A DNA stretch of 64,000 bases from Microthrixaceae bacterium (GCA_052390255.1 JBQTHC010000007.1:2745-66744), one strand, 5' to 3'; shown: positions 16,645 through 60,443, counted from the first letter of the stretch. Made by a program: numbers and translations. Notes: generated from the sequence alone by a model not told the origin.

Positions 16645-16707
16645 CCCGTCCGGGCTACGCTTGCGTGGCTAGTTCGGCGCGGCTGTCGCCGGGAGTCGAG
16701 GAGGGAC

Positions 16708-17412
16708 ATGACCGACGCCAACGCGCCGGATCAAGCGGAGCCAACTGCTGGCGACGCGATACGGGTGATGATCTGTGACGATCACGCCCTTTTCCGACGC
16801 GGGCTCGTCATGGTCCTCGAGTCAGAAGACGGCATCGAGGTGGTCGGCGAAGCCGAAGACGGCCAGGAGGCGATCGCCACCGTCGCAGACCTCGCGCCCG
16901 ACGTGGTGCTCATGGACGTCCGCATGCCTCGGGTCAGCGGCATCGAGGCCACCCGGACCATCGCCGAGCTGGTCCCGTCCGCGAAGATCCTCATGCTCAC
17001 CGTGAGCGACGAGGAAGAGGATCTGTACGGCGCGATCAAGGCGGGCGCCACCGGCTACCTCCTGAAGGAGATCTCGATCGAGGAGGTGGCCACCGCGATC
17101 CGGGCGGTCGTCGGCGGCCAGAGCCTGATCTCACCGTCGATGGCCTCCAAGCTGCTCTCCGAGTTCACGAACCTCTCCAAGAAGGCCGACGAGCGGCAGT
17201 CCGTCCCGTCGCCTCGCCTCACCGACCGCGAGCTCGAGGTCCTCAAGCTCGTCGCAGAGGGCATGAGCAACAAGGAGATCGCCGGCGAGCTGTTCATCTC
17301 CGAGAACACCGTGAAGAACCACGTCCGGAACATCCTCGAGAAGCTCCACCTGCACTCCCGCATGGAGGCAGTCGTGTACGCGGTGCGCGAGAAGCTGCTC
17401 GACATCCGCTGA
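16708..17412 (+). CDS. NarL/LuxR-family response regulator
   Basis: REC (DDH, LMDVRMP) plus LTDRELEVLKL...SNKEIA HTH. Confidence 0.93.
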   Translation: MTDANAPDQAEPTAGDAIRVMICDDHALFRRGLVMVLESEDGIEVVGEAEDGQEAIATVADLAPDVVLMDVRMPRVSGIEATRTIAELVPSAKILMLTVSDEEEDLYGAIKAGATGYLLKEISIEEVATAIRAVVGGQSLISPSMASKLLSEFTNLSKKADERQSVPSPRLTDRELEVLKLVAEGMSNKEIAGELFISENTVKNHVRNILEKLHLHSRMEAVVYAVREKLLDIR

Positions 17413-37868: not shown

Positions 37869-37875
37869 GCACTCG

Positions 37876-38262
37876 TGGAGCTGGAGGGAATCGAACCCTC
37901 GTCCGCCAAGCGGTCGACGTCCGCGCTACGACCATTCCCGAGATCACGCCACTACGGCTGGCGCACCGCCGGGTCGGGGGAGCACGCAAGGTGCTCGCCG
38001 CCGAGTCTTTCCTCGATGCCAGCGGTCTTTCCCGCCGTCAGTGGTCTCTCCCTCCCGTCCGCCGCTGCTTCTGTTGCCGGGCTGCAGCGACCTGGCCCCG
38101 TGTGCCGTCACCGGTCACTGGTGCTCTCCACGACCTAGTCGGAACTAGGCAGCGAGGGCGTACTGCTCGTTGGCAGTTGTTGTTGTGCCCCGATTAACGA
38201 GTCTGAGCAACTCGAGTCGCACGAATCGCCGAGCAGTCTCAACGTCGAAACCGATCAGCCCC
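37876..38262 (-). ncRNA. ssrA: tmRNA, tag peptide (A)ANEQYALAA
   Basis: 5' GGGGCTGATCGGTTTCGAC; 3' GGTTCGATTCCCTCCAGCTCCA; tag ORF GCC AAC GAG CAG TAC GCC CTC GCT GCC TAG; adjacent to smpB. Confidence 0.96.
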
Positions 38263-38340: not shown

Positions 38341-38811
38341 TCAATCCCCGCGGTCGCCTCGTTTGGCGCGGGCGACGTCGAGCGCCGCGTCGCGCTCGGC
38401 GATCACCTGGCGCTTGTCGTAGGTGCGTCGACCCTTGGCGAGACCGAGCTCCACCTTGGCCCTGCCGTCCTTGAAGTAGATCGACAGCGGGATGAGCGAC
38501 AGGTGCTCGGGATCGACGCGCGCCTTGAGCCGCATGATCTCGTGGTGGTGCAGGAGCAGCTTTCGCTTCTGGTCGGGGTCGTGCCCGGTGTGCGACTGCG
38601 AGTACAGCCACGGCGCGATGTGCAGCTGGTGCAGCCACACCTCGTTTCCGTCGATGCGCGCGAACGCGTCGGTGATCTGCACCTTCGCGTCGCGCAGCGA
38701 CTTGACCTCGCTCCCGCGCAGCACGATGCCGGCCTCGATCGTCTCGAGAATCTCGTAGTTGCGGCGAGCTTGCCGGTTGCTCGCGATCGGCTTGGTCCCG
38801 GTCGGCTTCAT
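38341..38811 (-). CDS. smpB: SsrA-binding protein
   Basis: NRQARRNY, EAGIVLRGSEVKSLR, RKLLLH, KGRRTYDKR. Confidence 0.96.
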   Translation of the reverse strand: MKPTGTKPIASNRQARRNYEILETIEAGIVLRGSEVKSLRDAKVQITDAFARIDGNEVWLHQLHIAPWLYSQSHTGHDPDQKRKLLLHHHEIMRLKARVDPEHLSLIPLSIYFKDGRAKVELGLAKGRRTYDKRQVIAERDAALDVARAKRGDRGD

Positions 38812-38869
38812 GGGGTCGCTCAGGCTACCGGTCGAGGCGCGGCGCAGAGCCGCCGGTACCCTTCCGCCC

Positions 38870-39277
38870 GTGCTGCTGCTGACGGACGCCACGTGGGCTC
38901 AGATGGTGGGGCACGCCTACGACGGGCTCCCCGATGAGGCGTGCGGACTGCTCGCCGGTCCGCCGGGCACGAGCCGGTGCACTGCGTTCTACCGCTGCCG
39001 CAACGCGGCCGAGTCGAGCCGCGTCTACACGATCGATCCGAAGGACCACCTGCGCGCCGACCGGGACGCCGAGGCGCGGGGTCTCGAGATCATCGGAGTC
39101 ATGCACTCCCACACCCACACCGACGCGTACCCGTCGCCCACCGACGTGGCGCAGGCGCCCGATCCGGGCTGGCACTACGTGATCGTGTCGCTGCGCGACG
39201 AGGCGCCGATGCTGCACTCGTACCGCATCGTCGACGCCCAGATCGCCGAGGAGGCGGTGTCCCGGATCGGCGGCTGA
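38870..39277 (+). CDS. mec: JAB/M67 metallopeptidase (Mec-like)
   Basis: PDEACGLL, HSHTHTDAYPSPTD JAMM motif; precedes cysM. Confidence 0.85.
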   Translation: MLLLTDATWAQMVGHAYDGLPDEACGLLAGPPGTSRCTAFYRCRNAAESSRVYTIDPKDHLRADRDAEARGLEIIGVMHSHTHTDAYPSPTDVAQAPDPGWHYVIVSLRDEAPMLHSYRIVDAQIAEEAVSRIGG

Positions 39278-48860: not shown

Positions 48861-49448
48861 ATGACCACGAGCGACGACCTCGATCTCACCGCCGCGAGCG
48901 ACGCCGTGCTCGTCGTGGCCATCAGCCGCTATCGCCAGGAAGCGCTGGCCGAGGTCTACCGGCGCCACGCCGGAGCGGTGTTCGCGCTCGCGCGACGCTT
49001 GCTCGGCGACCGGGCGCTCGCGGAGGAGATCGTGCAGGAGGTGTTCCTGCGGATCTGGAACAGCCCGGAGAAGTTCGATCACGAGCGCGGCAGCTTGCGG
49101 TCGTACCTGCTCGCCCAGTGCCACGGCCGCTCGGTCGACCTGCTGCGGTCGGAGACGTCGCGGCGCCTCCGCGAGGAGCGAGACCTCCGACGCACCGCGG
49201 AGTCGGGGTACGACCTCGCGCACGAGGTCGTCGACCTGGCGGTCGCGGAGCGCGTGCAGGAGGCGTTGCACACGCTGCCCCAAGGCGAGCGCGACGCCAT
49301 CGCCTTGGCCTACTTCGGTGGCCACACCTACCGTGAGGTGGCCGAGATGCTCGAAGAGCCCGAGGGGACCGTGAAGAGCAGGATCCGAGCTGGTCTCAAG
49401 CGATTGCGGAGCGAGCTCGTGGGCGCCGGGCTCGGGGGCGATCTGTGA
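48861..49448 (+). CDS. ECF sigma factor (SigK-like)
   Basis: AEEIVQEVF; LAYFGGHTYREVA..L..P.GTVKSRIRAGL. Confidence 0.9.
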   Translation: MTTSDDLDLTAASDAVLVVAISRYRQEALAEVYRRHAGAVFALARRLLGDRALAEEIVQEVFLRIWNSPEKFDHERGSLRSYLLAQCHGRSVDLLRSETSRRLREERDLRRTAESGYDLAHEVVDLAVAERVQEALHTLPQGERDAIALAYFGGHTYREVAEMLEEPEGTVKSRIRAGLKRLRSELVGAGLGGDL

Positions 49449-50209
49449 CCCCGCTCACCCACGACGAGGCCGCGGAGCTGCTGGGCGCGTACGCGCTGCA
49501 TGCGGTGGAACCCGCGGAGCGCGCGCTCGTGGAGGCCCATCTCGATGCGTGCCCTCGGTGTCGCGACGAGCTGCGCGGCCACGTCGGGGTGGCGGCGATG
49601 CTCGGCAACAGCGGCGGCGACGCGCCCGACGGGGTCTGGGACCGGATCGTCGGGAGCCTCGAGGAGGTCCCGCCGCCGTTGCGCCTGTCGTTGTCCGACG
49701 ACGCCACGGTCGTTCCCCTCGCGGCTCGTCGACGGGAGCGCGGCGGTCGAGTGGCGATCGCCGTGGCCGGGGCTGCCGCCGCGGTGACGATCGGCGTGCT
49801 CGGGGTCAAGGTCGTGCAGCAGGGCGACGAGATCGATCGCGTCCGCTCGGCGCTCGGCAACGACGCGATGCTCGCGGCCGCCAACCTCGCGCTGGTGGAC
49901 CCGCGCGCGATCGAGACTGAGCTGGTCTCGCCGGACGGGTCGGTCACCGCATCCGCGGTCGTGCTGCCCGACGGCACCGGGTACCTCCTTGCCCGAGACC
50001 TCCCGGGACTTCCGCCAGACCGCACGTACCAGCTCTGGGGGCAGACGTCGGGCGGCTTGATCTCGCTCGGCGTGCTCGGGTCCTCGCCCGGTCAGGTCGT
50101 CGCGTTCCGGGCGAGCGGCGACGTCGCGGCGCTCGCAATCACCGACGAGGTCGCCGGTGGGGTGTCGCAGTCGAAGAACGCGCCCGCGCTCATCGGTCGG
50201 TTCGACTGA
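49445..50209 (+). CDS. Anti-sigma factor (zf-HC2 plus RskA-like)
   Basis: HLDACPRC, TM, YQLW...SLG...AIT.E..GG; GTGA overlap with sigma gene. Confidence 0.88.
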   Translation: MTPLTHDEAAELLGAYALHAVEPAERALVEAHLDACPRCRDELRGHVGVAAMLGNSGGDAPDGVWDRIVGSLEEVPPPLRLSLSDDATVVPLAARRRERGGRVAIAVAGAAAAVTIGVLGVKVVQQGDEIDRVRSALGNDAMLAAANLALVDPRAIETELVSPDGSVTASAVVLPDGTGYLLARDLPGLPPDRTYQLWGQTSGGLISLGVLGSSPGQVVAFRASGDVAALAITDEVAGGVSQSKNAPALIGRFD

Positions 50210-50210
50210 C

Positions 50211-50954
50211 TCAGGAACCGGTGCGGGCGTGGGAGCCCGGTCCGGTTCCGACCCAGCTCGAGGTCCACGACAGCGAGCTCCCGGCGCAGGGGGGCAATCC
50301 GTGCGACGGGTCGTTCACACCGGAGAAGGCACGGGACACGCAGTCGGCCCACGCCTCTTCCGGTCGGTTGCTGTAGGCGGGCCAGCCCTCAGGCGCCGCG
50401 CCGTTGAAGGCCTGCGACCCGTAGCGGAATGCGATCAGGTGGCCGAACTCGTGCGCCACCGTCGCGCGGAGTGCGGCGTCGCTGCCGTTCGCGTGCGCCG
50501 AGCCGATCTGGATCGTGCCGTCGTGTGCCGCCCACGACGTGTTGCCCTCGATGAGCTGGAAGCGGACCGAGATGGCGGACCGCCAGGCCGCGGGGACCGA
50601 CCGCTCGTACGCCGCCTGGACGCGCACTGCAGGGTCGACCGGAGGCGGCGGCGGGGGAGGTGGGGGTGCGGGCGCGGGGGCCGGTGCCGGGCGCGGTGCG
50701 GGCGCGGGCGCCACCGTGGTGGGGGGCGCAGGGACGGTGGTGGGAGGAGCGGTCGTCTCGGGCGCAGCGACGGGGAGCGCCACCTCGGCCACGGCACCCT
50801 CGAGCGCCTGCGCGGTGACCCGGTCGACGGCCGGAGACTGCGCCGCGGAGCGGCCGGCGGTCTCTGCGATCGCTGCGGCGGCCCCGAGCTGCAACCCCAG
50901 GATCGCGAGGCACAGCACGCGGACTGGGCGAGAGATCCGGTCGGGGCGAGCCAT
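50211..50954 (-). CDS. Secreted Pro/Thr-linker protein with HExxH zincin domain
   Basis: Signal peptide, PAPAP linker, VAHEFGH ... EEAWADC. Confidence 0.7.
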   Translation of the reverse strand: MARPDRISRPVRVLCLAILGLQLGAAAAIAETAGRSAAQSPAVDRVTAQALEGAVAEVALPVAAPETTAPPTTVPAPPTTVAPAPAPRPAPAPAPAPPPPPPPPPVDPAVRVQAAYERSVPAAWRSAISVRFQLIEGNTSWAAHDGTIQIGSAHANGSDAALRATVAHEFGHLIAFRYGSQAFNGAAPEGWPAYSNRPEEAWADCVSRAFSGVNDPSHGLPPCAGSSLSWTSSWVGTGPGSHARTGS

Positions 50955-51165
50955 GCCCAAGACGTCGACCCACCGGCACGGCGGGCCGCAGAGGGCCCTG
51001 CACCCCATCGGCAGGCCGATCGCGCCTCGTTGCTGGTCTCAGCGCACTAGGCCGAATGGACCAATCCCAGCGGGTCTCGCTGAACCCCTCCTAAAGGTGC
51101 ATGTCGATCAGGACGAATGCATCGATGTGACGTTTTGAGGGAAACGTCCCCTGGAGGAGTGTGAG

Positions 51166-51870
51166 ATGCAAGGACCCACCACCACAGCGAGGATCACCGT
51201 GCTCGTGATCGACGACCACGAGCTGCTGAGCACGGCCCTGGGGGCCGCGTTCCATCAAGACGGACGCACGACGGTGACCGGCACCGCCTCGACGATCGCG
51301 GAGGGTGTCGACGCCGCCCGTCGGCTCCTGCCGGACGTGATCCTCACGGATCGCCGCCTGCCCGACGGTGACATGGACGAGCGCATCGACGAGCTCCGCG
51401 CAGCGAGCCCGAGCTCGCGCATCGTGCTGATGACGGGGTGGCCCACGCAGCGGTCGTGCCTCGCGGCACTCGATGCCGGCGTCCAGGGCATCATCTCGAA
51501 GGCGCAGCCCGTCTCCCAGATCCTCGACACGGTCGCTCGCGTGGTGGCAGGCGATCTCGTTGTCCCGGCGACGCTGACCCCGGTGCTCCTCGCGCGCACC
51601 GGTCGGTCAGACGTCGCGCGGCCGAACGACCTCTCGCGCCGCGAGCTCGACGTGCTCGAAGCGCTCGCGTGCGGGGAGTCGACCTTGGCGGCAGCGCGTC
51701 GCCTCTGCATCAGCAACAACACCGTTCGCAACCATCTCGCGCGAGCGATGCTCAAGCTCGGCGTGCACGACCGCCTCTCCGCGGTCTCCGAGGCCATCCG
51801 TCTCGGCCTCGTCGCGCCCCGCCTGCCCGGTTCCACCCAGGGATCCGAGCGCGAGGCGGCGTGCTGGTGA
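51166..51870 (+). CDS. NarL/LuxR-family response regulator
   Basis: GGAGGAG RBS; DDH, phosphoacceptor Asp in ILTDRRLPDGD; LSRRELDVL HTH. Confidence 0.9.
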   Translation: MQGPTTTARITVLVIDDHELLSTALGAAFHQDGRTTVTGTASTIAEGVDAARRLLPDVILTDRRLPDGDMDERIDELRAASPSSRIVLMTGWPTQRSCLAALDAGVQGIISKAQPVSQILDTVARVVAGDLVVPATLTPVLLARTGRSDVARPNDLSRRELDVLEALACGESTLAAARRLCISNNTVRNHLARAMLKLGVHDRLSAVSEAIRLGLVAPRLPGSTQGSEREAACW

Positions 51871-54209
51871 CTGCCATCGACGCCTCGGTGGACCTCACCG
51901 CCGATCTGCTGCTCGCGGTCGAGCGTGACGAGGTGCGTGTCCACTACCTCCCGATCGTCGGGCTGACCAACGGGCTCGTGGTCGGCGTCGAGGCGCTCGC
52001 CCGGTGGCATCGCGCTGATCGCGTGCTCGACACGCAGGTGTTCCTCGGGCTTGCCGAGCGCACCGGGAGCATCGTGGACATCGGGCATCGCGTGATGGAG
52101 CGCGCGTTCGCCGACGTGATGCGGTGGAACACGCGCAACCCGGCCCGTTCGCCGCTTCGGCTGTCCGTGAACCTGTCGCTGCGCCAGCTCGAGCATCCCG
52201 ACTTCGTCAACCGTCTCCACGGCCTGCTTGACGCGACGGGGTTCGACGCGTCGAGCCTCTGGTTGGAGGTCGGCGAGGACTCGTTGCACGCGCTCGGTCA
52301 TGCGGTGGGACCAATCCTCCTGTCGCTGCAGGAGCGCGGCATCCGGCTGTCCGTCGACGACTTCGGCACGGGTGCGTCGTCGCTCGTCGCGTTGCAGCGC
52401 TATCACCTCGACGAGCTGAAGATCGATCGCTCGTTCGTCGCGCAGATGGACGCCGATGGTGACGCCGCCACGATCGTGCGCGGCGTCGTCCGCCTTGCCC
52501 AGTCGCTCGGTCTCGACACTGTCGCTGAGGGCGTCGAGCGGCCGGTGCAGGAGCAGATGCTTCGCTCGCTCGGCTGCGAGCTCGCGCAGGGCTGGCTCTA
52601 TGCGAGGCCCGGTGAGGACCTCGATGCCACGATCGCGACGGCGGACCGAGCGGCGAACGACTCGCTCGATCGTCGCCCCGCCGAGAACCAGGAGCTCTGG
52701 GAGGGCTCGCCGTCGGCGCTGAGCGCCACCCGCTTCGTGGAGGCTGTGTTCGAGAGCGCGCCGATCGGGATGGTCCTCATCGACGAGGCCGGTCGACATC
52801 TCGCAGCCAACCCAGCCGTGGCTCGTCTGCTCGGACGCGAGGTCGACGAGCTCCTCGACATGACCTGCTGGGAAGCCGTGCACCCTGAGGACCTCCGCGA
52901 GGATCTCGCTGGGATGGACGCGCTCCTGCGTGGTGAGTGCCCCACCTACGTCGTCGAAGAGCGTGTCGTGGGCCGTGACGGTCTGCCGCGCTGGGTCGAG
53001 GTGACGGTCACCGGTGTGCCCGGGGACCACCAGGCGAACGGCACCCACGCTCGCCTGTTGCGGCAGGTGCGCAGCATCGAGGAGACGCGGCGCGCGAGCG
53101 AAGACGCGGCGGTGCTCCGCAGCGTCGTTGCTGCGTCACCCGATGCGCTCGTCATCACCGACGAGCTCGGTCGGTGCACGCTGTGGAACCCAGCAGCCGA
53201 ACGCCTCTTCGGCTGGACGGAGAAGGAGATGCTCGGCTCGACGCTCACCCGGCTCGTCGACGCGCGGTCGCAGCTGTTCCTCGCGCGCACGGTCGGCGAC
53301 GCCACGGCGGGCGCCGCGGTGCGCTGGCCCGACGCAACCTGGCTTAGCTCGACCGGCGAGGAGCGCGCCGTCGACGTGACGTTCGGTCCGATCGTCGACG
53401 CGAGCGGCACGCGGATGGGTCTCGTCGTGCTCGCGCGCGACGTGAGCGAGCAACGAGCCGCAGCCGCAGAGCTCGCGTTGGCGCACGAGGCACTCGGGCT
53501 GCACGCGGCCGACGTGGCAGCGGCCAACGTGCGCCTCGAGACCTTCGCCAGCACCTTGTCGCACGACCTCATGCAGCCGGTCGTCGCCCTCGACGGGTTC
53601 CTCTCGCTCCTCCGGGAGGAGGCGACCGAGCTCGACGACGAGCATCGCGAGTGGCTCGCCGGCGCCCTGCGCGGCAAGGACCGAGTGTCGGCCGCGATCG
53701 ACGCGCTCTATCGCAACGCCGTCGACGAGGAGCTCAGCCTCGTGCCGGTCGACATGGCCCGTCTCGTGTCGGATCTCGTGCCCGGCTTGATCGCCGAGAT
53801 CGGCGGCGCCGAGGTGATCGTGGGCGACCTGCCCACCGTGGCGGCCGACTGGGGTCTCGTCACGCAGATCCTCGCCAACCTGATCCAGAACGCCGGCCGC
53901 TACCGCCACGAGGAGCGACCGCTCGTGGTCGACCTTCAGGCACGCACCGATGGTGCTGACGCGTGGGTCATCGTTGTGGCCGACACCGGCAAGGGCATCA
54001 GCACCGACGAGCTCGAGGCCGTGTTCCAGCCTGGCCGGCGTGGCCGCTCCGCGGACGGGGTCGGCGGCACGGGGACCGGTCTGGCGACCGTGCGTACGCT
54101 CATGCAGCGCATGGGTGGCGAGGCGTGGGCCGAGCCCGAGCCCTCCGGCGGCGTGCGCATGTGCCTTCGCTTCCAAGGGGCCCTCGTCACCGCCCCCACC
54201 GCACACTGA
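51867..54209 (+). CDS. EAL-PAS-PAS-HisKA-HATPase hybrid sensor protein
   Basis: EALARW, NLS, DDFGTG, KIDRSF, AEGVE, QGW; two PAS (NPA, HPED; WNPAAERLFGW); SHDL H-box, N-box, DTGKG, GTGL. Confidence 0.88.
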   Translation: MTAIDASVDLTADLLLAVERDEVRVHYLPIVGLTNGLVVGVEALARWHRADRVLDTQVFLGLAERTGSIVDIGHRVMERAFADVMRWNTRNPARSPLRLSVNLSLRQLEHPDFVNRLHGLLDATGFDASSLWLEVGEDSLHALGHAVGPILLSLQERGIRLSVDDFGTGASSLVALQRYHLDELKIDRSFVAQMDADGDAATIVRGVVRLAQSLGLDTVAEGVERPVQEQMLRSLGCELAQGWLYARPGEDLDATIATADRAANDSLDRRPAENQELWEGSPSALSATRFVEAVFESAPIGMVLIDEAGRHLAANPAVARLLGREVDELLDMTCWEAVHPEDLREDLAGMDALLRGECPTYVVEERVVGRDGLPRWVEVTVTGVPGDHQANGTHARLLRQVRSIEETRRASEDAAVLRSVVAASPDALVITDELGRCTLWNPAAERLFGWTEKEMLGSTLTRLVDARSQLFLARTVGDATAGAAVRWPDATWLSSTGEERAVDVTFGPIVDASGTRMGLVVLARDVSEQRAAAAELALAHEALGLHAADVAAANVRLETFASTLSHDLMQPVVALDGFLSLLREEATELDDEHREWLAGALRGKDRVSAAIDALYRNAVDEELSLVPVDMARLVSDLVPGLIAEIGGAEVIVGDLPTVAADWGLVTQILANLIQNAGRYRHEERPLVVDLQARTDGADAWVIVVADTGKGISTDELEAVFQPGRRGRSADGVGGTGTGLATVRTLMQRMGGEAWAEPEPSGGVRMCLRFQGALVTAPTAH

Positions 54210-54229
54210 CCAGGCTCGCGGTCGGAGTG

Positions 54230-54505
54230 CTAGGTGCGCCGCGACGGGGGAGCGACGCGCACGGGTTCCGAGTCCGTCGAGCACGAGGGTTCGGTGCTGC
54301 GGCGACGTACGCCGAGGTACGCCGCTCCGGCAAGCATGGCCACCGCGATCCCGGCCGCTCCGACGAAGAGGCTGCCGATCGTCCCGACGACGCTCAGCCC
54401 GCCGAGGACGGCGAGGATCGGCCCGGCACAGCACGCGGCACACGCAGCGATGCCGATGCCGACGACGCGGAACGGCTCCTTCTTCGTCGTGGTGGGCTCG
54501 GTCAT
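54230..54505 (-). CDS. Small Cys-rich 2-TM protein (mercury-transporter-like)
   Basis: ACAACCAGP in first TM; coupled to MerR gene. Confidence 0.6.
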   Translation of the reverse strand: MTEPTTTKKEPFRVVGIGIAACAACCAGPILAVLGGLSVVGTIGSLFVGAAGIAVAMLAGAAYLGVRRRSTEPSCSTDSEPVRVAPPSRRT

Positions 54506-55248
54506 GCCGCCTCTCCGAACAGCGCAGTGACGATCTCATCGGCACCGTCCGGGGCTCGCACTTCGAGTCCGACCCCGCGTTGGTCCACGGTGATGGTGAA
54601 CGCGAAGAACGCGCAGCACGCCTGCTCCGCGCTGACGAGCCTTGCGAGCTCCGCCCACGACACATCTGCGGCGAACCCGAGCCGCAACGCGCCGTCGGCG
54701 GTTCGCCCGCGTGTCTCAGCTTGGTCGAGGAGCGTCTGCCACTTCGCGAGCCGGTCGGGCATCGCCGCCGCGTCGAGCGTGCACGCGATCGGAGCTTCGG
54801 CCGGCTTGGAGACGACCGACACCGCGATGCGCCTGCTCGTGTGACCCGAGACGCAGGCGCAGCCCTCACCGCAGGGGCCATCGCTGGCCGGGCCCGAGAG
54901 CTGCCGGGCGGCAGCCTGAAGCTGCGCAGCAAAGGCGGTCAGCTCGGCGAGCTGCGCCTGCGTGGCGGCGGTGTTCGATGTCACGAGCTCGTGGAACCGT
55001 CGCACGGTCGGCCTGCATTGCTCGCCGTCCCAGATCGCGACGAGATCGACGATGTCCTCGAGCGAGCAGCCGAGCTTCTTGGCGCGCGCGATGAACGCGA
55101 GGCGCGCCAGCGCGTGGTCGTCGTAGACCCGGTACCCGCTGTCGCTGCGCGTCACCGGCGACACGAGCCCGCGGCGGTCGTAGTAGCGGAGCGCCGAGGT
55201 GGTGAAGCCGGTTCGCTGGGCAACCTCTCCGATCGTGAAGGTGCGCAT
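54502..55248 (-). CDS. MerR-family regulator with Cys-rich C-terminal extension
   Basis: TIGEVAQRTG...LRYY...SGYRVY; C-terminal CGEGCAC, IACTL and EQACCAFF. Confidence 0.9.
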   Translation of the reverse strand: MRTFTIGEVAQRTGFTTSALRYYDRRGLVSPVTRSDSGYRVYDDHALARLAFIARAKKLGCSLEDIVDLVAIWDGEQCRPTVRRFHELVTSNTAATQAQLAELTAFAAQLQAAARQLSGPASDGPCGEGCACVSGHTSRRIAVSVVSKPAEAPIACTLDAAAMPDRLAKWQTLLDQAETRGRTADGALRLGFAADVSWAELARLVSAEQACCAFFAFTITVDQRGVGLEVRAPDGADEIVTALFGEAA

Positions 55249-56236: not shown

Positions 56237-56245
56237 CCTGTGTCG

Positions 56246-56319
56246 TACCCCCCCTGGGACTCGAACCCAGAACCTGCGGATTAAGAGTCCGACGCTCTGA
56301 CCAATTGAGCTAGAGGGGC
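56246..56319 (-). tRNA. tRNA-Lys(CTT)
   Basis: GCCCCTCTAGCTCAATTGG...GGACTCTTAATCC...GGTTCGAGTCC cloverleaf. Confidence 0.95.
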
Positions 56320-56395
56320 GTGTGGACCTCGCAGCCTAGGCGCTCGCGCGCCTGGCTACGAAGGCCTACTGGTCGTGTGGTCGAACGGTGCTGCT

Positions 56396-56473
56396 TGGGG
56401 TGACAGAGGGGACTTGAACCGCCGGCCTCCAGGGCCACAACCTGGCGCTCTAACCACCTGAGCTACGGCCACC
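56396..56473 (-). tRNA. tRNA-His(GTG) with G-1, C73 and encoded CCA; two stem mismatches
   Basis: CCAGG-TTGTGGC-CCTGG anticodon arm; C6xU67 and C51xC63 mismatches. Confidence 0.88.
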
Positions 56474-56560
56474 ATGGGAGCGGTCAGCATAGGTCAGCAC
56501 GGGCATCGCTCATCAACCGTGAACGAGCGCTCGAGGTCTGACGCCTACGCTTCGAAGCGG

Positions 56561-56634
56561 GCCTCCGTAGCTCAGATGGACAGAGCAGCGGACTTCTAAT
56601 CCGACGGTCGCACGTTCGAGTCGTGCCGGAGGCG
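56561..56634 (+). tRNA. tRNA-Arg(TCT)
   Basis: GCCTCCG/CGGAGGC acceptor; CTTCTAA loop; GCACG-TTCGAGT-CGTGC T arm. Confidence 0.95.
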
Positions 56635-56650
56635 CTCGAGTGCCCGTCCC

Positions 56651-57010
56651 TCAGGCGACCGGGCGCACGACCCGACGCAACCCCAAGCCGAGGCCGAGCA
56701 GCCCGAGCCCGACGCCCAGCATCGACTCCATGCCGGTCTGCGCAACGCCGTCGACCCCGCCCGTGGGTGGCGTCGAGGTCCCGAGACCGCTGCCTTCGAT
56801 CGCCGGCGTCGGCGCGTCGCCCATGGTCGAGGTGGTCGTGGCTGGCACGGTCGTGGAAGTGGTCGTCGAGGTCGTGCTGGTGGCCGCGGCGGGTGCGGCC
56901 GAGTCGCGCCCGCCGAGGTCCCCAGGCCGCGCGATCGCGAGCGCGCTGCCTACGGCGAAGAGCAGCGCGGCGGCACTCAGGACGAGCTTCTCGGGGGGGT
57001 TCAGGGTCAT
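56651..57010 (-). CDS. Small Thr-rich exported protein with C-terminal (V)AQTG-TM-basic tail
   Basis: N-terminal TM, poly-Thr/Ser tract, VAQTG, hydrophobic segment, RR. Confidence 0.55.
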   Translation of the reverse strand: MTLNPPEKLVLSAAALLFAVGSALAIARPGDLGGRDSAAPAAATSTTSTTTSTTVPATTTSTMGDAPTPAIEGSGLGTSTPPTGGVDGVAQTGMESMLGVGLGLLGLGLGLRRVVRPVA

Positions 57011-57027
57011 GCACCTCGACTGCGGAC

Positions 57028-57102
57028 TGGAGCGGGCGACGGGAATCGAACCCGCACCACCAGCTTGGAAGGCTGGGGCTCTAGCCGTTGAGCTACGCCC
57101 GC
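57028..57102 (-). tRNA. tRNA-Gly(TCC)
   Basis: GCGGGCGTAGCTCA...CCAGCCTTCCAAGCTGG...GGTTCGATTCCCGTCGCCCGCTCCA. Confidence 0.96.
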
Positions 57103-58191: not shown

Positions 58192-58869
58192 TCAGCTCGG
58201 TGCGGTGACGTGCCGGTCGGGATCCTCCGCGAACGCTGCTACGCAGCCGAGGCTGCAGAACCAGTAGTCCCGGTCGTGGTGGCGCAGCCGTCCGGCGGCT
58301 TCGGCACGGGCCACCTGCATCCGGCACACCGGATCGATCGCGGTCCCCGCGGCGGCGGGGCACACCTCGAGCTCGAAGAGCTCGACGGGTTGCGCCAGGT
58401 TGCGCAGCTCGAACGCACCGAGGTCCACGACGGTCACGCCGGCGCGGCGGGCCGCCTCGGCCACCTCGTCCGTGGCGAGCACCTGGCCACCGTGGGCCTG
58501 TCCCGCCACGCGGGCCGCGAGGTTCACGCTCCCGCCGAGGTAGTCGCCGGATCGTGCGATCGCCGCGCCGTGGTGGAGCCCCGCGCGCAGGACCGGCAGA
58601 CCCGGTTCGGCGCTGGCGGTGGTGAAGAGCCGGGTGAGCGCCGAGATCGCAGCGGAGGGATCGGCGAACACGACCATGACGGCGTCGCCGATCGTCTTCA
58701 CGAGGCGATCGCCAACGCCGAGTGCCTCTGTCGTGATCGCCTCGAACCGATCGACGAGCGTCACCGCCTCGCTGTCACCGTGGACCTCGGTGAGCGCCGT
58801 GAACCCGGCCAGGTCGACGAACCCGAACGTCGCCTCGATCTCTCCAGCACGAGCATCGGCGTCAGCCAT
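58192..58869 (-). CDS. Class III adenylate cyclase fused to C-terminal YHS domain
   Basis: FVDLAGFT, VKTIGDAVM, DYLGGSVNLAARV; IDPVCRM...YWFCSLGC. Confidence 0.87.
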   Translation of the reverse strand: MADADARAGEIEATFGFVDLAGFTALTEVHGDSEAVTLVDRFEAITTEALGVGDRLVKTIGDAVMVVFADPSAAISALTRLFTTASAEPGLPVLRAGLHHGAAIARSGDYLGGSVNLAARVAGQAHGGQVLATDEVAEAARRAGVTVVDLGAFELRNLAQPVELFELEVCPAAAGTAIDPVCRMQVARAEAAGRLRHHDRDYWFCSLGCVAAFAEDPDRHVTAPS

Positions 58870-58889
58870 CCCGCGCAGCCTCCCAGAGA

Positions 58890-58964
58890 TGGTCGGGGAG
58901 GGGGGATTCGAACCCCCGACCTCCTGCTCCCAAAGCAGGTGCGCTACCACTGCGCCACTCCCCG
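58890..58964 (-). tRNA. tRNA-Pro(TGG)
   Basis: CGGGGAGTGGCGCAG...CCTGCTTTGGGAGCAGG...GGTTCGAATCC...CCGACCA. Confidence 0.96.
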
Positions 58965-59054
58965 TGGACGGCGCCGAGCGTAGTTGCGGCCCTTCCGCGG
59001 CCCTGAAACGGCGTGCCGGGTCGACACACCCCCACCGATACACTCGCCCCTCGC

Positions 59055-60443
59055 ATGAGATCCACCGTCGAACCCCTCGAGGGCAACAAGGTCAAGCTGT
59101 GCGTCGAGGTCGACGCCGGTGAGTTCGAGGAGGCCGTGAACGCGGCCTTCAAGAAGATCGCCAAGGAGGTCCGGATCCCGGGCTTCCGGCCCGGCAAGGC
59201 CCCCCGCAAGATCCTCGAGACCCGATTCGGTCCGATGATCGGTCGTGAGCAGGCGCTCCAGGACTCCCTGCCCGAGTACTACTCGGCGGCCGTCATCGAG
59301 CACGACGTCGACGTGATCGCACCGCCCGAGATCGACATCACCGGCGGCCAGGAGGCGGGCGACGTCGCCTTCGACGCGGTGGTCGAGGTACGGCCCACGA
59401 TCGAGGTGCCCGGCTACGGCTCGCTCACCGTCACGCTCGAGCGTCCCAGCGTCGACGAGGACGCGCTCGACGCACAGATCGACCGGATGCGAGGCCTCGA
59501 CAGCACGCTCGTGGAGGTCCACCGCCCGGCCCAGGAAGGCGACACCGTCACCATCGACGTCGCCGGCACGCTCGACGGTGAGCCCCAGGCCGGCCTCACC
59601 GCCGACGACTACAGCTACACGGTCGGATCGGGCGTCATCACCCCGGAGGTCGACGAGCACCTCGTGGGGGCGAAGGCGGGCGACACCCTGAGCTTTGACG
59701 CCACCCACCCGGATCCCGACGAGACCGGTCAGCTCCACTTCGAGATCGTCGTGCAGGACGTGAAGGAGAAGGTCCTGCCCGAGGCCACCGACGAATGGGC
59801 CGCGGAGGCGTCGGAGTTCGAGACCCTCGGCGAGCTGCGCGCCAGCCTCGCTGAGCGCATGATCCGCGTCCGCAAGGTGCAGGCCCAGATGGCGCTGCGC
59901 GAGAAGGTCGGCGAGGCGCTCGCCGCCCTCGTCACGCAAGACCTCCCCGATGCCCTCATCAGCCACGAGATGCAGGACCGTCTGCAGGACCTGGCGCTGC
60001 GGCTCCAGGCGCAGGGGATGCAGCTCGAGCAGTACCTCGCCATGACCGGCGCCGACCCCGAGACCTTCAGCACCGAGCTGCGCGAAACCGCCACCTCGGG
60101 TGTCAAGGTCGACCTCGCGCTGCGGGCAGTCGCCGACGCGGAGGGCATCGACTGCACCGACGACGAGCTCGACGACGAGATCCAGAGCGTGGCCGCCCGC
60201 GTCGACCAGACGCCGGAGGAGGTCCGGGCCCGGTTCGAGCGCGTCGGCCAACTGTCGGCGGTACGATCCGACATCAGGAAGCGCAAGGCGCTCGAGTGGC
60301 TCTTGGAGCGGGCCGAGGTGCTCGACCCCGAGGGTGCGGTGATCGACCGCAGCGAGCTCGAGCTCCCGGTGGAGAGTGACGACACGGACGACGCCGAGGA
60401 CACCGCGACCGAGGTCGCCGACGAAACGGAAGACGACGAGTGA
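59055..60443 (+). CDS. tig: Trigger factor
   Basis: [10 protein letters not shown] ribosome-binding motif; FKBP-like middle domain; position before clpP-clpX. Confidence 0.95.

Follow-up and report, generated by a model that had tools for sequence, protein, structure and literature searches.

We analysed a 64,000-nucleotide stretch of DNA from a Microthrixaceae bacterium (GCA_052390255.1 JBQTHC010000007.1:2745-66744; hereafter the window), in which a preliminary description had pointed to an EAL phosphodiesterase fused to the front of a PAS-containing histidine kinase. The interval in question, 51166-54209 counted from the first letter of the window, contains two plus-strand genes rather than a single open reading frame (ORF). 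The first (51166-51870, plus strand) starts with ATG and encodes a 234-amino-acid response regulator of the NarL/FixJ type, in which Pfam recognises a receiver (REC) domain and a GerE helix-turn-helix. The second (51867-54209, plus strand) starts with GTG and encodes a soluble EAL-PAS-PAS-HisKA-HATPase_c protein of 780 amino acids, with no internal stop. The GTG start of the kinase gene sits over the TGA stop of the regulator gene as GTGA. This overlap with an intact regulator had been reported before, and both the junction sequence and the Pfam REC and GerE matches agree with it; indeed, the anatomy given in the preliminary description proved right on every point that could be checked. Regulator and kinase form a translationally coupled two-gene operon that is conserved in uncultured Acidimicrobiia.

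The DNA of the window is 70% GC, a composition at which long ORFs are expected by chance. Across 51950-54200, third-position GC stayed within 0.81-0.94 in a single frame, and thus the kinase gene contains no hidden frameshift; the frame translates without a stop and its third-position GC is continuous, as the uninterrupted ORF of the earlier account implied. Two antisense ORFs of 597 amino acids (51255-53048, minus strand) and 598 amino acids (53136-54932, minus strand) run across the kinase gene. We rejected them as genes: their codon-position GC is not gene-like when set against the plus frame, and they are by-products of the 70% GC composition. Because chance ORFs of such length occur at 70% GC, the reality of the kinase gene rests on its domain scores and on homologous clusters, not on its length.

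The EAL domain occupies residues 13-248 of the kinase (51903-52610, plus strand) and matched PF00563 with 212.9 bits against a cut-off of 31.3, over profile positions 3-236 of 236. Its fold superimposed on the solved structures 8arv and 5m1t with target-normalised TM-scores of 0.93-0.95 and root-mean-square deviations of 1.5-1.9. In the AlphaFold model, a post-EAL helix (residues 252-267) and a low-confidence linker (268-283) follow (52611-52715, plus strand). Next come PAS domain 1 with its N-cap helix (residues 284-404; 52716-53078, plus strand; Pfam at about 300-389, and AlphaFold), in which C334, W335, H339, D342, and D346 are invariant, and PAS domain 2 (residues 417-530; 53115-53456, plus strand; Pfam and AlphaFold). 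The helical hairpin of the dimerisation and histidine phosphotransfer (DHp) domain spans residues 527-620 (53445-53726, plus strand; Pfam HisKA at 557-614, and AlphaFold). Its HisKA match is marginal (PF00512, 28.3 bits versus a cut-off of 26.9), the phospho-acceptor H566 lies within SHDL (565-568), and a structure-library match showed a resemblance to bacteriophytochrome kinases. The HATPase_c catalytic domain (residues 665-769; 53859-54173, plus strand; PF02518 in Pfam, 73.1 bits versus 26.4) carries the N, G1 (DxGxG), and G2 (GxGxG) boxes. Pfam gave no GGDEF match in the 780-residue protein, and the scan as a whole returned the two PAS domains, the SHDL-type HisKA, and the complete HATPase that had been described. 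The protein had also been called free of transmembrane segments. The 19-residue Kyte-Doolittle mean peaks at 1.49, within an EAL strand, and gives no sign of a membrane helix. The NCBIfam DibA, DosP, FixL, and AtoS models all scored far under their equivalog cut-offs, and the kinase can therefore be placed at family level only.

We located the EAL motifs at residues 42 (EAL), 102 (N), 134-137 (ExxE), 164-169 (DDFGTG), 185 (K), 221 (E), and 241 (Q). The corresponding residues E42, R46, N102, E134, E137, D164, D165, K185, E221, and Q241 align with those of the solved EAL domains of BifA (8arv), MucR (5m1t), and TBD1265 (2r6o), in keeping with the earlier claim that the catalytic set is retained. 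Judged by this alignment, the EAL domain holds every residue needed to bind and hydrolyse cyclic di-GMP (c-di-GMP), the list of required residues being taken in part from PMC7290235. Loop 6 reads DDFGTGASS: an Ala replaces the Tyr and the remainder of the motif is kept. According to PMC7290235, loop 6 has the consensus DFG(T/A)GYSS, and neither dimerisation nor the binding of Mg and c-di-GMP can do without it. Tyr is present at this position in all three solved EAL domains that we aligned (8arv, 5m1t, and 2r6o).

In the regulator, Pfam matched Response_reg (PF00072, 56.5 bits) at residues 12-123 and GerE (PF00196, 52.9 bits) at residues 156-208. D16, D17, D62, and K112 align with the acidic pocket, the phospho-acceptor Asp, and the Lys of NarL (1a04). 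The protein thus combines a REC domain that has the acidic pocket, the Asp, and the Lys with a GerE/LuxR helix-turn-helix, the make-up of the NarL/FixJ family. The NCBIfam NarL model gave 105 bits versus a cut-off of 250, and the FixJ model 49.5 bits versus 255. Because its equivalog score is far under the cut-off, the regulator is placed at family level only and is not a NarL orthologue.

We wondered how widely the fusion occurs. A protein search over 5.8 billion clusters at 90% identity listed 120 matches, and 65 of these contain both EAL and HATPase_c: the window protein and 64 other clusters with 42-81% identity to it. The EAL domain stands N-terminal to the kinase core in all 64, which come from Acidimicrobiia or Actinomycetota metagenome bins. 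Those to which the source gives a name are called "EAL domain-containing protein" or "PAS domain S-box-containing protein" (Acidimicrobiales, Microthrixaceae, Actinomycetota), and none bears a functional name. From the 66th listed match on, only the EAL third of the query was covered, by ordinary PAS-GGDEF-EAL proteins. When the search was repeated with a relative that lacks PAS domains (P0061), the same family was recovered, with both domains in 58 of the 120 listed matches. In a library built at 50% identity, the family reduces to a few clusters (P0043, P0055, P0056, P0061, P0063, and P0068); the other matches among the best 150 are long multi-PAS proteins, and the EAL-kinase combination was present in none of the five other high scorers that we scanned (P0245, P0252, P0255, P0371, and P0376). 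The ESM Atlas neighbours listed are PAS-histidine-kinase clusters, none with EAL among its top families. No solved structure carries both modules; the fold matches are PAS kinases (NifL, LOV kinases) or isolated EAL domains. Sequence searches of this kind reach the relatives of this family, and independent EAL-kinase fusions in other phyla would escape them. One of the 58 two-domain matches to P0061 is a distinct fusion: P0395 (803 amino acids) reads PAS-GGDEF (160 bits)-EAL-HATPase_c with no HisKA match. Only about 55 residues separate its EAL and ATPase domains, and it seems to join EAL to a downstream GHKL ATPase with no DHp domain.

A genome scan returned 13 loci. Four of them (L001-L004, in Acidimicrobiales, Microthrixaceae, and Actinomycetota bins) are close relatives, with kinases 76-81% identical over residues 1-772; the other nine match PAS or kinase parts only. 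These searches bear on the possibility, allowed for in the preliminary description, that the fusion is an assembly chimera or a singleton, or that a frameshift has joined a gene pair in this contig only. Nothing beyond the general risk of metagenome assembly and the chance long ORFs expected at 70% GC speaks for such an artefact. Against it, the architecture is common to 64 other clusters from separate contigs (with the window protein, 65 of the 120 listed matches join EAL and HATPase_c), four genome-bin loci encode the fusion across residues 1-772, codon-position GC is unbroken in one frame, and the AlphaFold model of the protein is confident in every domain (mean predicted local distance difference test score, pLDDT, 86.8). 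The one-frame GC, the 64 clusters, and the four loci together rule out a chimera or a frameshift, and we give an artefact practically no weight.

The preliminary description had proposed a check on whether the regulator is conserved with the kinase. In the four close loci it is: a regulator 84-87% identical to that of the window lies directly upstream in 4/4. The window, L001, and L002 have the GTGA overlap, whereas the genes overlap by 1 nucleotide in L004 and are about 7 nucleotides apart in L003. Because these loci are closely related, their shared adjacency shows inheritance more than selection. To reach further into the family we used a same-contig proxy, exact equality of the longest-contig size between the table of kinase matches and the table of regulator matches. 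The proxy was positive for 18 of the 64 non-window kinase clusters, where a rough estimate gives about one by chance. Among the positives are long forms of the kinase with an N-terminal extension (P0032, P0033, and P0035, which bear a GGDEF domain, and P0043, whose extension has no Pfam GGDEF match) and one form without PAS domains, P0055, paired with P0173 (67% identical to the regulator). Real pairs can be missed by this proxy: L001 and L003 have the regulator yet show no size match in the regulator table. The pairing is well supported within the main clade, and the GTGA overlap and conserved adjacency point to the regulator as the probable cognate partner of the kinase.

An inverted repeat precedes the operon at 51129-51149, 17 nucleotides before the ATG of the regulator gene, with 7-nucleotide arms and a 6-nucleotide spacer that contains GAGGG. 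It is kept upstream of the regulator in all five sequences compared (the window and L001-L004), and one arm position is altered on both sides in three of the five (UA in two, CG in two, AU in one). The repeat could be an autoregulatory operator or a stem-loop in the 5' untranslated region. A further conserved block lies at about 51090-51120. An Rfam search of the region upstream of the regulator gave no match at E<=1. A scan of 50900-54700 for sigma-70 promoters and terminators returned none of either, a result that is uninformative in an actinobacterium of 70% GC.

We then aligned the window protein with its 64 relatives (P0005-P0068; n=65). The residues E42, R46, N102, E137, D164, and D165 are identical in 64/64 sequences aligned at these positions, and K185 and Q241 in 65/65. 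Position 134 is E in 62 and D in 2. Position 221 is E in 63 and A in 2, the latter being a pair without PAS domains (P0055 and P0058) that keeps the other metal and substrate residues. On the kinase side, H566, D706, G708, G710, G734, G736, and G738 are identical in 65/65, and N675 is present in 64/65, with one gap. The Tyr position of loop 6 holds A in 51 sequences, S in 6, M in 3, V in 2, and T in 2; none of the 64 has Y or F.

The commonest layout in the family is EAL-PAS-PAS-kinase. Both PAS domains are missing in six members (524-549 amino acids), and three members have a single PAS domain (646-649 amino acids). Seven others (P0031-P0035, P0038, and P0043; about 930-943 amino acids) carry an N-terminal extension of about 155-169 amino acids. 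In six of the seven this extension is a GGDEF domain with a degenerate signature (GGDTF, GGDAF, ASNTF, or AGNTF; Pfam 59 bits for P0031), and in P0043 Pfam no longer recognises it as GGDEF. We discarded the idea of an active cyclase in these long relatives because the signature is degenerate in all six with a recognisable GGDEF. In a FastTree phylogeny built from the EAL and DHp-CA columns (CA, catalytic and ATP-binding) and midpoint rooted, with the N-terminally truncated P0052 omitted from the tree only, the PAS-less forms fall in two separate clades (P0061, P0062, P0064, and P0065; P0055 and P0058). The one-PAS forms lie inside a distant clade, in a third place, and the GGDEF-bearing forms make up a grade. 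The PAS domains were lost at least twice independently. Since the domains before and between EAL and DHp-CA come and go, EAL plus DHp-CA is the constant core. The degenerate GGDEF before EAL in the longer relatives, taken with the phylogeny, suggests an origin of the family in the joining of an ordinary degenerate-GGDEF-EAL phosphodiesterase to a FixL-like PAS kinase, with later loss of GGDEF on the branch that leads to the window protein.

What does the EAL domain do at the front of a kinase? The reading that we favour, with a probability of roughly 0.4, is that the protein acts as a trigger phosphodiesterase kinase, whose output would be set jointly by what EAL does with c-di-GMP, binding and hydrolysing it, and by signals from the PAS domains. 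Three features of the family favour it. The EAL-kinase link has outlasted all the other domains, which were lost repeatedly. Where the PAS domains are missing, EAL is the sole candidate input; as the only domain upstream of the kinase, it occupies, by position in the sequence, the place usual for an input domain. Finally, one PAS-less clade has dropped the catalytic Glu and kept the binding residues, and the E221A change in P0055 and P0058 is what would be expected if binding alone suffices for their function. A narrower claim, which we make tentatively and with a little more reserve, is that EAL is the primary input domain, so that the kinase would read c-di-GMP by binding and hydrolysing it and pass this information, by phosphotransfer, to a NarL/FixJ-type transcription factor.

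The predicted structures place a constraint on any such coupling. The AlphaFold model of the window protein (43-row alignment; predicted template modelling score, pTM, 0.50) shows, in order, a confident EAL barrel, the helix 252-267, a low-confidence stretch, PAS1, a helix at 405-423, PAS2, DHp, and CA. Within the stretch after EAL, residues 275-281 have pLDDT under 50, and the ten-residue blocks across 271-290 average 50-56. On the kinase side, one continuous helix (527-585) runs from PAS2 into DHp, where its hairpin partner is 591-619. The PAS-less P0061 (40 rows; pLDDT 87.3, pTM 0.56) gave a similar picture, with a post-EAL helix at 253-268, a disordered segment at 274-286 (pLDDT <50), and a DHp helix at 287-336. 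Among the 47 two-PAS forms, mean pairwise identity is 0.63 for EAL, 0.64 for PAS1, 0.55 for PAS2, 0.61 for DHp, and 0.56 for CA, and it is 0.42 for the post-EAL helix and 0.49 for the linker. A complex prediction of EAL (8-262) with two copies of DHp-CA (535-775), run without controls, gave scores of 0.00/0.00 and weighs neither way.

Several of our observations tell against a trigger kinase. In both the window protein and P0061, EAL is joined to the rest by a poorly conserved helix and a low-confidence linker of about 16-18 residues. PAS1, PAS2, and DHp, in contrast, are connected through unbroken helices, so that the most evident path for a signal leads from PAS into DHp and does not start at EAL. 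The arrangement of the domains is not predicted, since pTM is only 0.50 for the window protein and 0.56 for P0061. Catalytic residues conserved almost without exception would be expected equally of an enzyme output. The 64-kb window contains no other GGDEF, EAL, PilZ, or c-di-GMP gene, and GGDEF-EAL proteins in related bins are the sole hint of a cellular c-di-GMP supply. Lastly, the same-contig proxy found no regulator match in the most distant clade (P0053-P0068, except P0055; 43-45% identity).

Some of these points would suit a different division of labour, in which the PAS domains are the sole sensors and drive both the C-terminal kinase and the N-terminal EAL, with EAL not informing the kinase. 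One stimulus would then alter both transcription and the c-di-GMP level. The continuous helices that join PAS1, PAS2, and DHp are in line with this arrangement, as are an EAL catalytic set kept as in working enzymes, a PAS1 conserved like EAL itself (0.64 versus 0.63 mean pairwise identity), and the matches, by structure and by sequence, to EAL enzymes under PAS control, DosP for example. However, PAS-less relatives have twice independently retained EAL and kinase without a sensor, the low-confidence linker lies between EAL and PAS1, and those matching EAL proteins that are under PAS control and have solved structures place their sensor N-terminal to EAL. No precedent is known for a C-terminal sensor that controls an EAL domain. 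On balance, we judge PAS control of both outputs to be unlikely, at about one chance in four.

The flexible linkers in both AlphaFold models would also be expected if the fusion involved no allostery at all and only dimerised the EAL enzyme and co-localised it with a two-component system. EAL would be kept constitutively active by DHp dimerisation and the operon would provide for co-expression, the activities being otherwise independent; the arrangement may be what remains of an event that fused the gene of a degenerate-GGDEF-EAL enzyme to that of a PAS kinase. The relatives of about 940 amino acids with a degenerate GGDEF before EAL do have the layout of ordinary GGDEF-EAL phosphodiesterases. 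The loss of the loop 6 Tyr in 64/64 sequences could reflect dimerisation that now comes from DHp, given the role assigned to this loop in PMC7290235. Yet the fusion persists down to 43% identity despite repeated loss of the intervening domains, which argues for selection on the physical link itself, and the E221A forms would be pointless as enzymes. We regard a tethered enzyme of this kind as improbable.

If the protein is a trigger phosphodiesterase kinase, it might work as follows. The DHp dimer would keep two EAL domains near each other, and c-di-GMP occupancy and turnover would alter the pairing or docking of these domains. The state of EAL, together with PAS-sensed signals, would shift the balance between kinase and phosphatase activities; this balance would set the phosphorylation of the regulator and hence the transcription of its target genes. 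Hydrolysis would reset the sensor and lower the local c-di-GMP concentration. Because the tether is flexible, any coupling between EAL and kinase would have to use domain pairing, docking, or release rather than a coiled-coil piston. By analogy with ShkA, for which "domain liberation" offers a model of coupling through a flexible tether, such a mechanism is plausible but unproven. An apparently active EAL domain at the front of the kinase suggests a possible direct link from c-di-GMP to phosphotransfer, a proposal backed by the PAS-less relatives and weakened by the low-confidence EAL linker.

The preliminary description knew of no characterised EAL-first histidine kinase. Full-text literature searches, with subscription journals outside their coverage, found none, and a 2021 review of kinase sensing (PMC8534201) does not use the word "EAL" in its available text. 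PMC9756655, a comparative-genomics paper, lists HisKA, HATPase_c, Hpt, or HAMP in a small number of EAL proteins from Alphaproteobacteria, one or two per order; its available passages state neither what these proteins do nor in what order their domains stand. Among the nearest known systems, RocS1/RocR, VieS/VieA, and PvrS/PvrR likewise bring histidine kinase, receiver, and EAL into one pathway, and both RocR (3sy8) and the NCBIfam model for PvrR are among the matches to the EAL domain of the window protein. In RocR, VieA, and PvrR, however, the kinase phosphorylates a REC-EAL protein and EAL is the output, whereas here EAL lies upstream on the kinase and the receiver has a DNA-binding output. 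The ordinary PAS-GGDEF-EAL phosphodiesterases DosP, MucR, BifA, and TBD1265 are the best sequence or fold matches for residues 7-263. Their EAL domains are C-terminal; in the window protein about 530 residues (PAS-PAS-kinase) follow EAL, and the loop 6 Tyr is absent.

The C-terminal 500 residues resemble FixL, with the same PAS-PAS-HisKA-HATPase_c order and, as in FixL/FixJ, a REC plus GerE partner. The NCBIfam FixL model aligns over residues 297-765, the FixJ model matches the regulator, and an Atlas neighbour cluster of the kinase is named "Sensor protein FixL". The kinase is nevertheless not a FixL orthologue, because the model (NF041777) scores 79.8 bits versus a cut-off of 850. FixL is not known to have an EAL domain.

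Neither control of a kinase by c-di-GMP nor an active EAL domain used as a sensor is new in itself. PMC5052742 describes PdeR and PdeL as active EAL proteins that act as c-di-GMP sensors, and applies Hengge's term trigger phosphodiesterase to an EAL enzyme that is active and that governs a specific macromolecular target through the c-di-GMP it binds and turns over; the word "kinase" does not occur in the paper. For the window protein, what the data show of this is an EAL domain competent by sequence and covalently linked to the kinase. PdeL, by the same account, likewise has EAL fused to a regulatory output, and the PdeL/YahA structures match the EAL domain of the window protein with E of about 1e-23 to 5e-24. 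The output of PdeL is a LuxR-type DNA-binding domain N-terminal to EAL, and PdeR acts on another protein. In the window protein a histidine kinase C-terminal to EAL is the presumed output, and the LuxR-type domain is on a separate, phospho-accepting regulator. On the kinase side, a direct link from c-di-GMP to kinase or phosphatase activity is reported for CckA, ShkA, RavS, and MtrB in PMC8534201, PMC6707612, PMC7010744, and PMC12282275. CckA, ShkA, and RavS are controlled through non-EAL domains (PMC8534201, available text). In these four kinases c-di-GMP binds at CA, PAS, or pseudo-receiver domains; none hydrolyses it, and none has an EAL domain according to the same text. The EAL-kinase architecture is real, conserved, and uncharacterised, and its components and general logic are familiar.

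The operon lies in a housekeeping chromosomal region. Upstream are rpe, a TRAM methyltransferase gene, a sigma/anti-sigma pair, and a divergent gene; downstream are a convergent MerR-family gene, five tRNA genes, a cation-efflux gene, and tig-clpP-clpP-clpX. The divergent ORF (50211-51008, minus strand; 265 amino acids) has no Pfam match. Its product combines a hydrophobic N-terminal segment (Kyte-Doolittle 2.06 at residue 29) with a long stretch rich in Pro and Ala and an HExxH motif in the C-terminal region, and it may be a secreted or anchored zinc peptidase. The ORF adjoins the operon in L001 and L004 (72-74% identity), and L002 and L003 hold fragments of it where their contigs end. Overlapping ORFs that lie two genes before the operon (48861-50209, plus strand) encode a SigK-like extracytoplasmic function (ECF) sigma factor and an RskA-type anti-sigma factor (zf-HC2). 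The best NCBIfam model for the sigma factor is SigK (156.7 bits, under the cut-off), and the pair is present in L001 and was not detected in L004.

The MerR-family regulator (54502-55248, minus strand; 248 amino acids) is convergent with the kinase gene. Its residues 1-120 are CueR/ZntR-like (82 bits, under the cut-off), and its C-terminal 125 residues or so have no family match. Just downstream of the operon is a tRNA cluster of Lys-CTT, His-GTG, Arg-TCT, and Gly-TCC (56245-57102), followed by Pro-TGG (58890-58964). At gathering scores, Rfam found only a tmRNA and six tRNAs over the window; the tmRNA (37875-38262; tag ANEQYALAA) adjoins smpB (38344-38898). A stop-to-stop ORF at 58195-59091 (minus strand) combines an adenylate/guanylate cyclase catalytic domain with a C-terminal YHS domain, an unusual pairing. 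Its real start must lie further in, because the 5' end as drawn overlaps tRNA-Pro. A second NarL/GerE-type response regulator is encoded at 16645-17412 (plus strand; REC 98.5 bits, GerE 85.6 bits), and no kinase gene is evident beside it among the ORFs scanned.

c-di-GMP networks and two-component systems are the two largest bacterial signalling systems. The known links between them run mostly from kinases to REC-GGDEF or REC-EAL outputs, or consist of c-di-GMP acting at non-enzymatic sites on a few kinases. If the domains of the present protein are independent, it is merely another shuffled signalling protein. If the trigger reading is true, a kinase with a working phosphodiesterase at its front would be a compact self-resetting circuit whose signal is consumed as it is read. 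It would add a fourth, enzymatic route of c-di-GMP control of kinases to those through CA-domain, PAS, and pseudo-receiver sites, and would extend the trigger-enzyme idea past Escherichia coli. As a trigger phosphodiesterase built into a two-component system it would be the first, and the PAS-less relatives of about 525 amino acids would be its minimal form. The natural variants are ready constructs for studying communication between an EAL domain and a kinase core: a degenerate GGDEF with EAL, two PAS domains, and kinase; EAL with two, one, or no PAS domains and kinase; and an EAL domain with its catalytic Glu changed to Ala. Acidimicrobiia are known almost only from metagenomes, and the operon gives a first handle on c-di-GMP signalling in this class.

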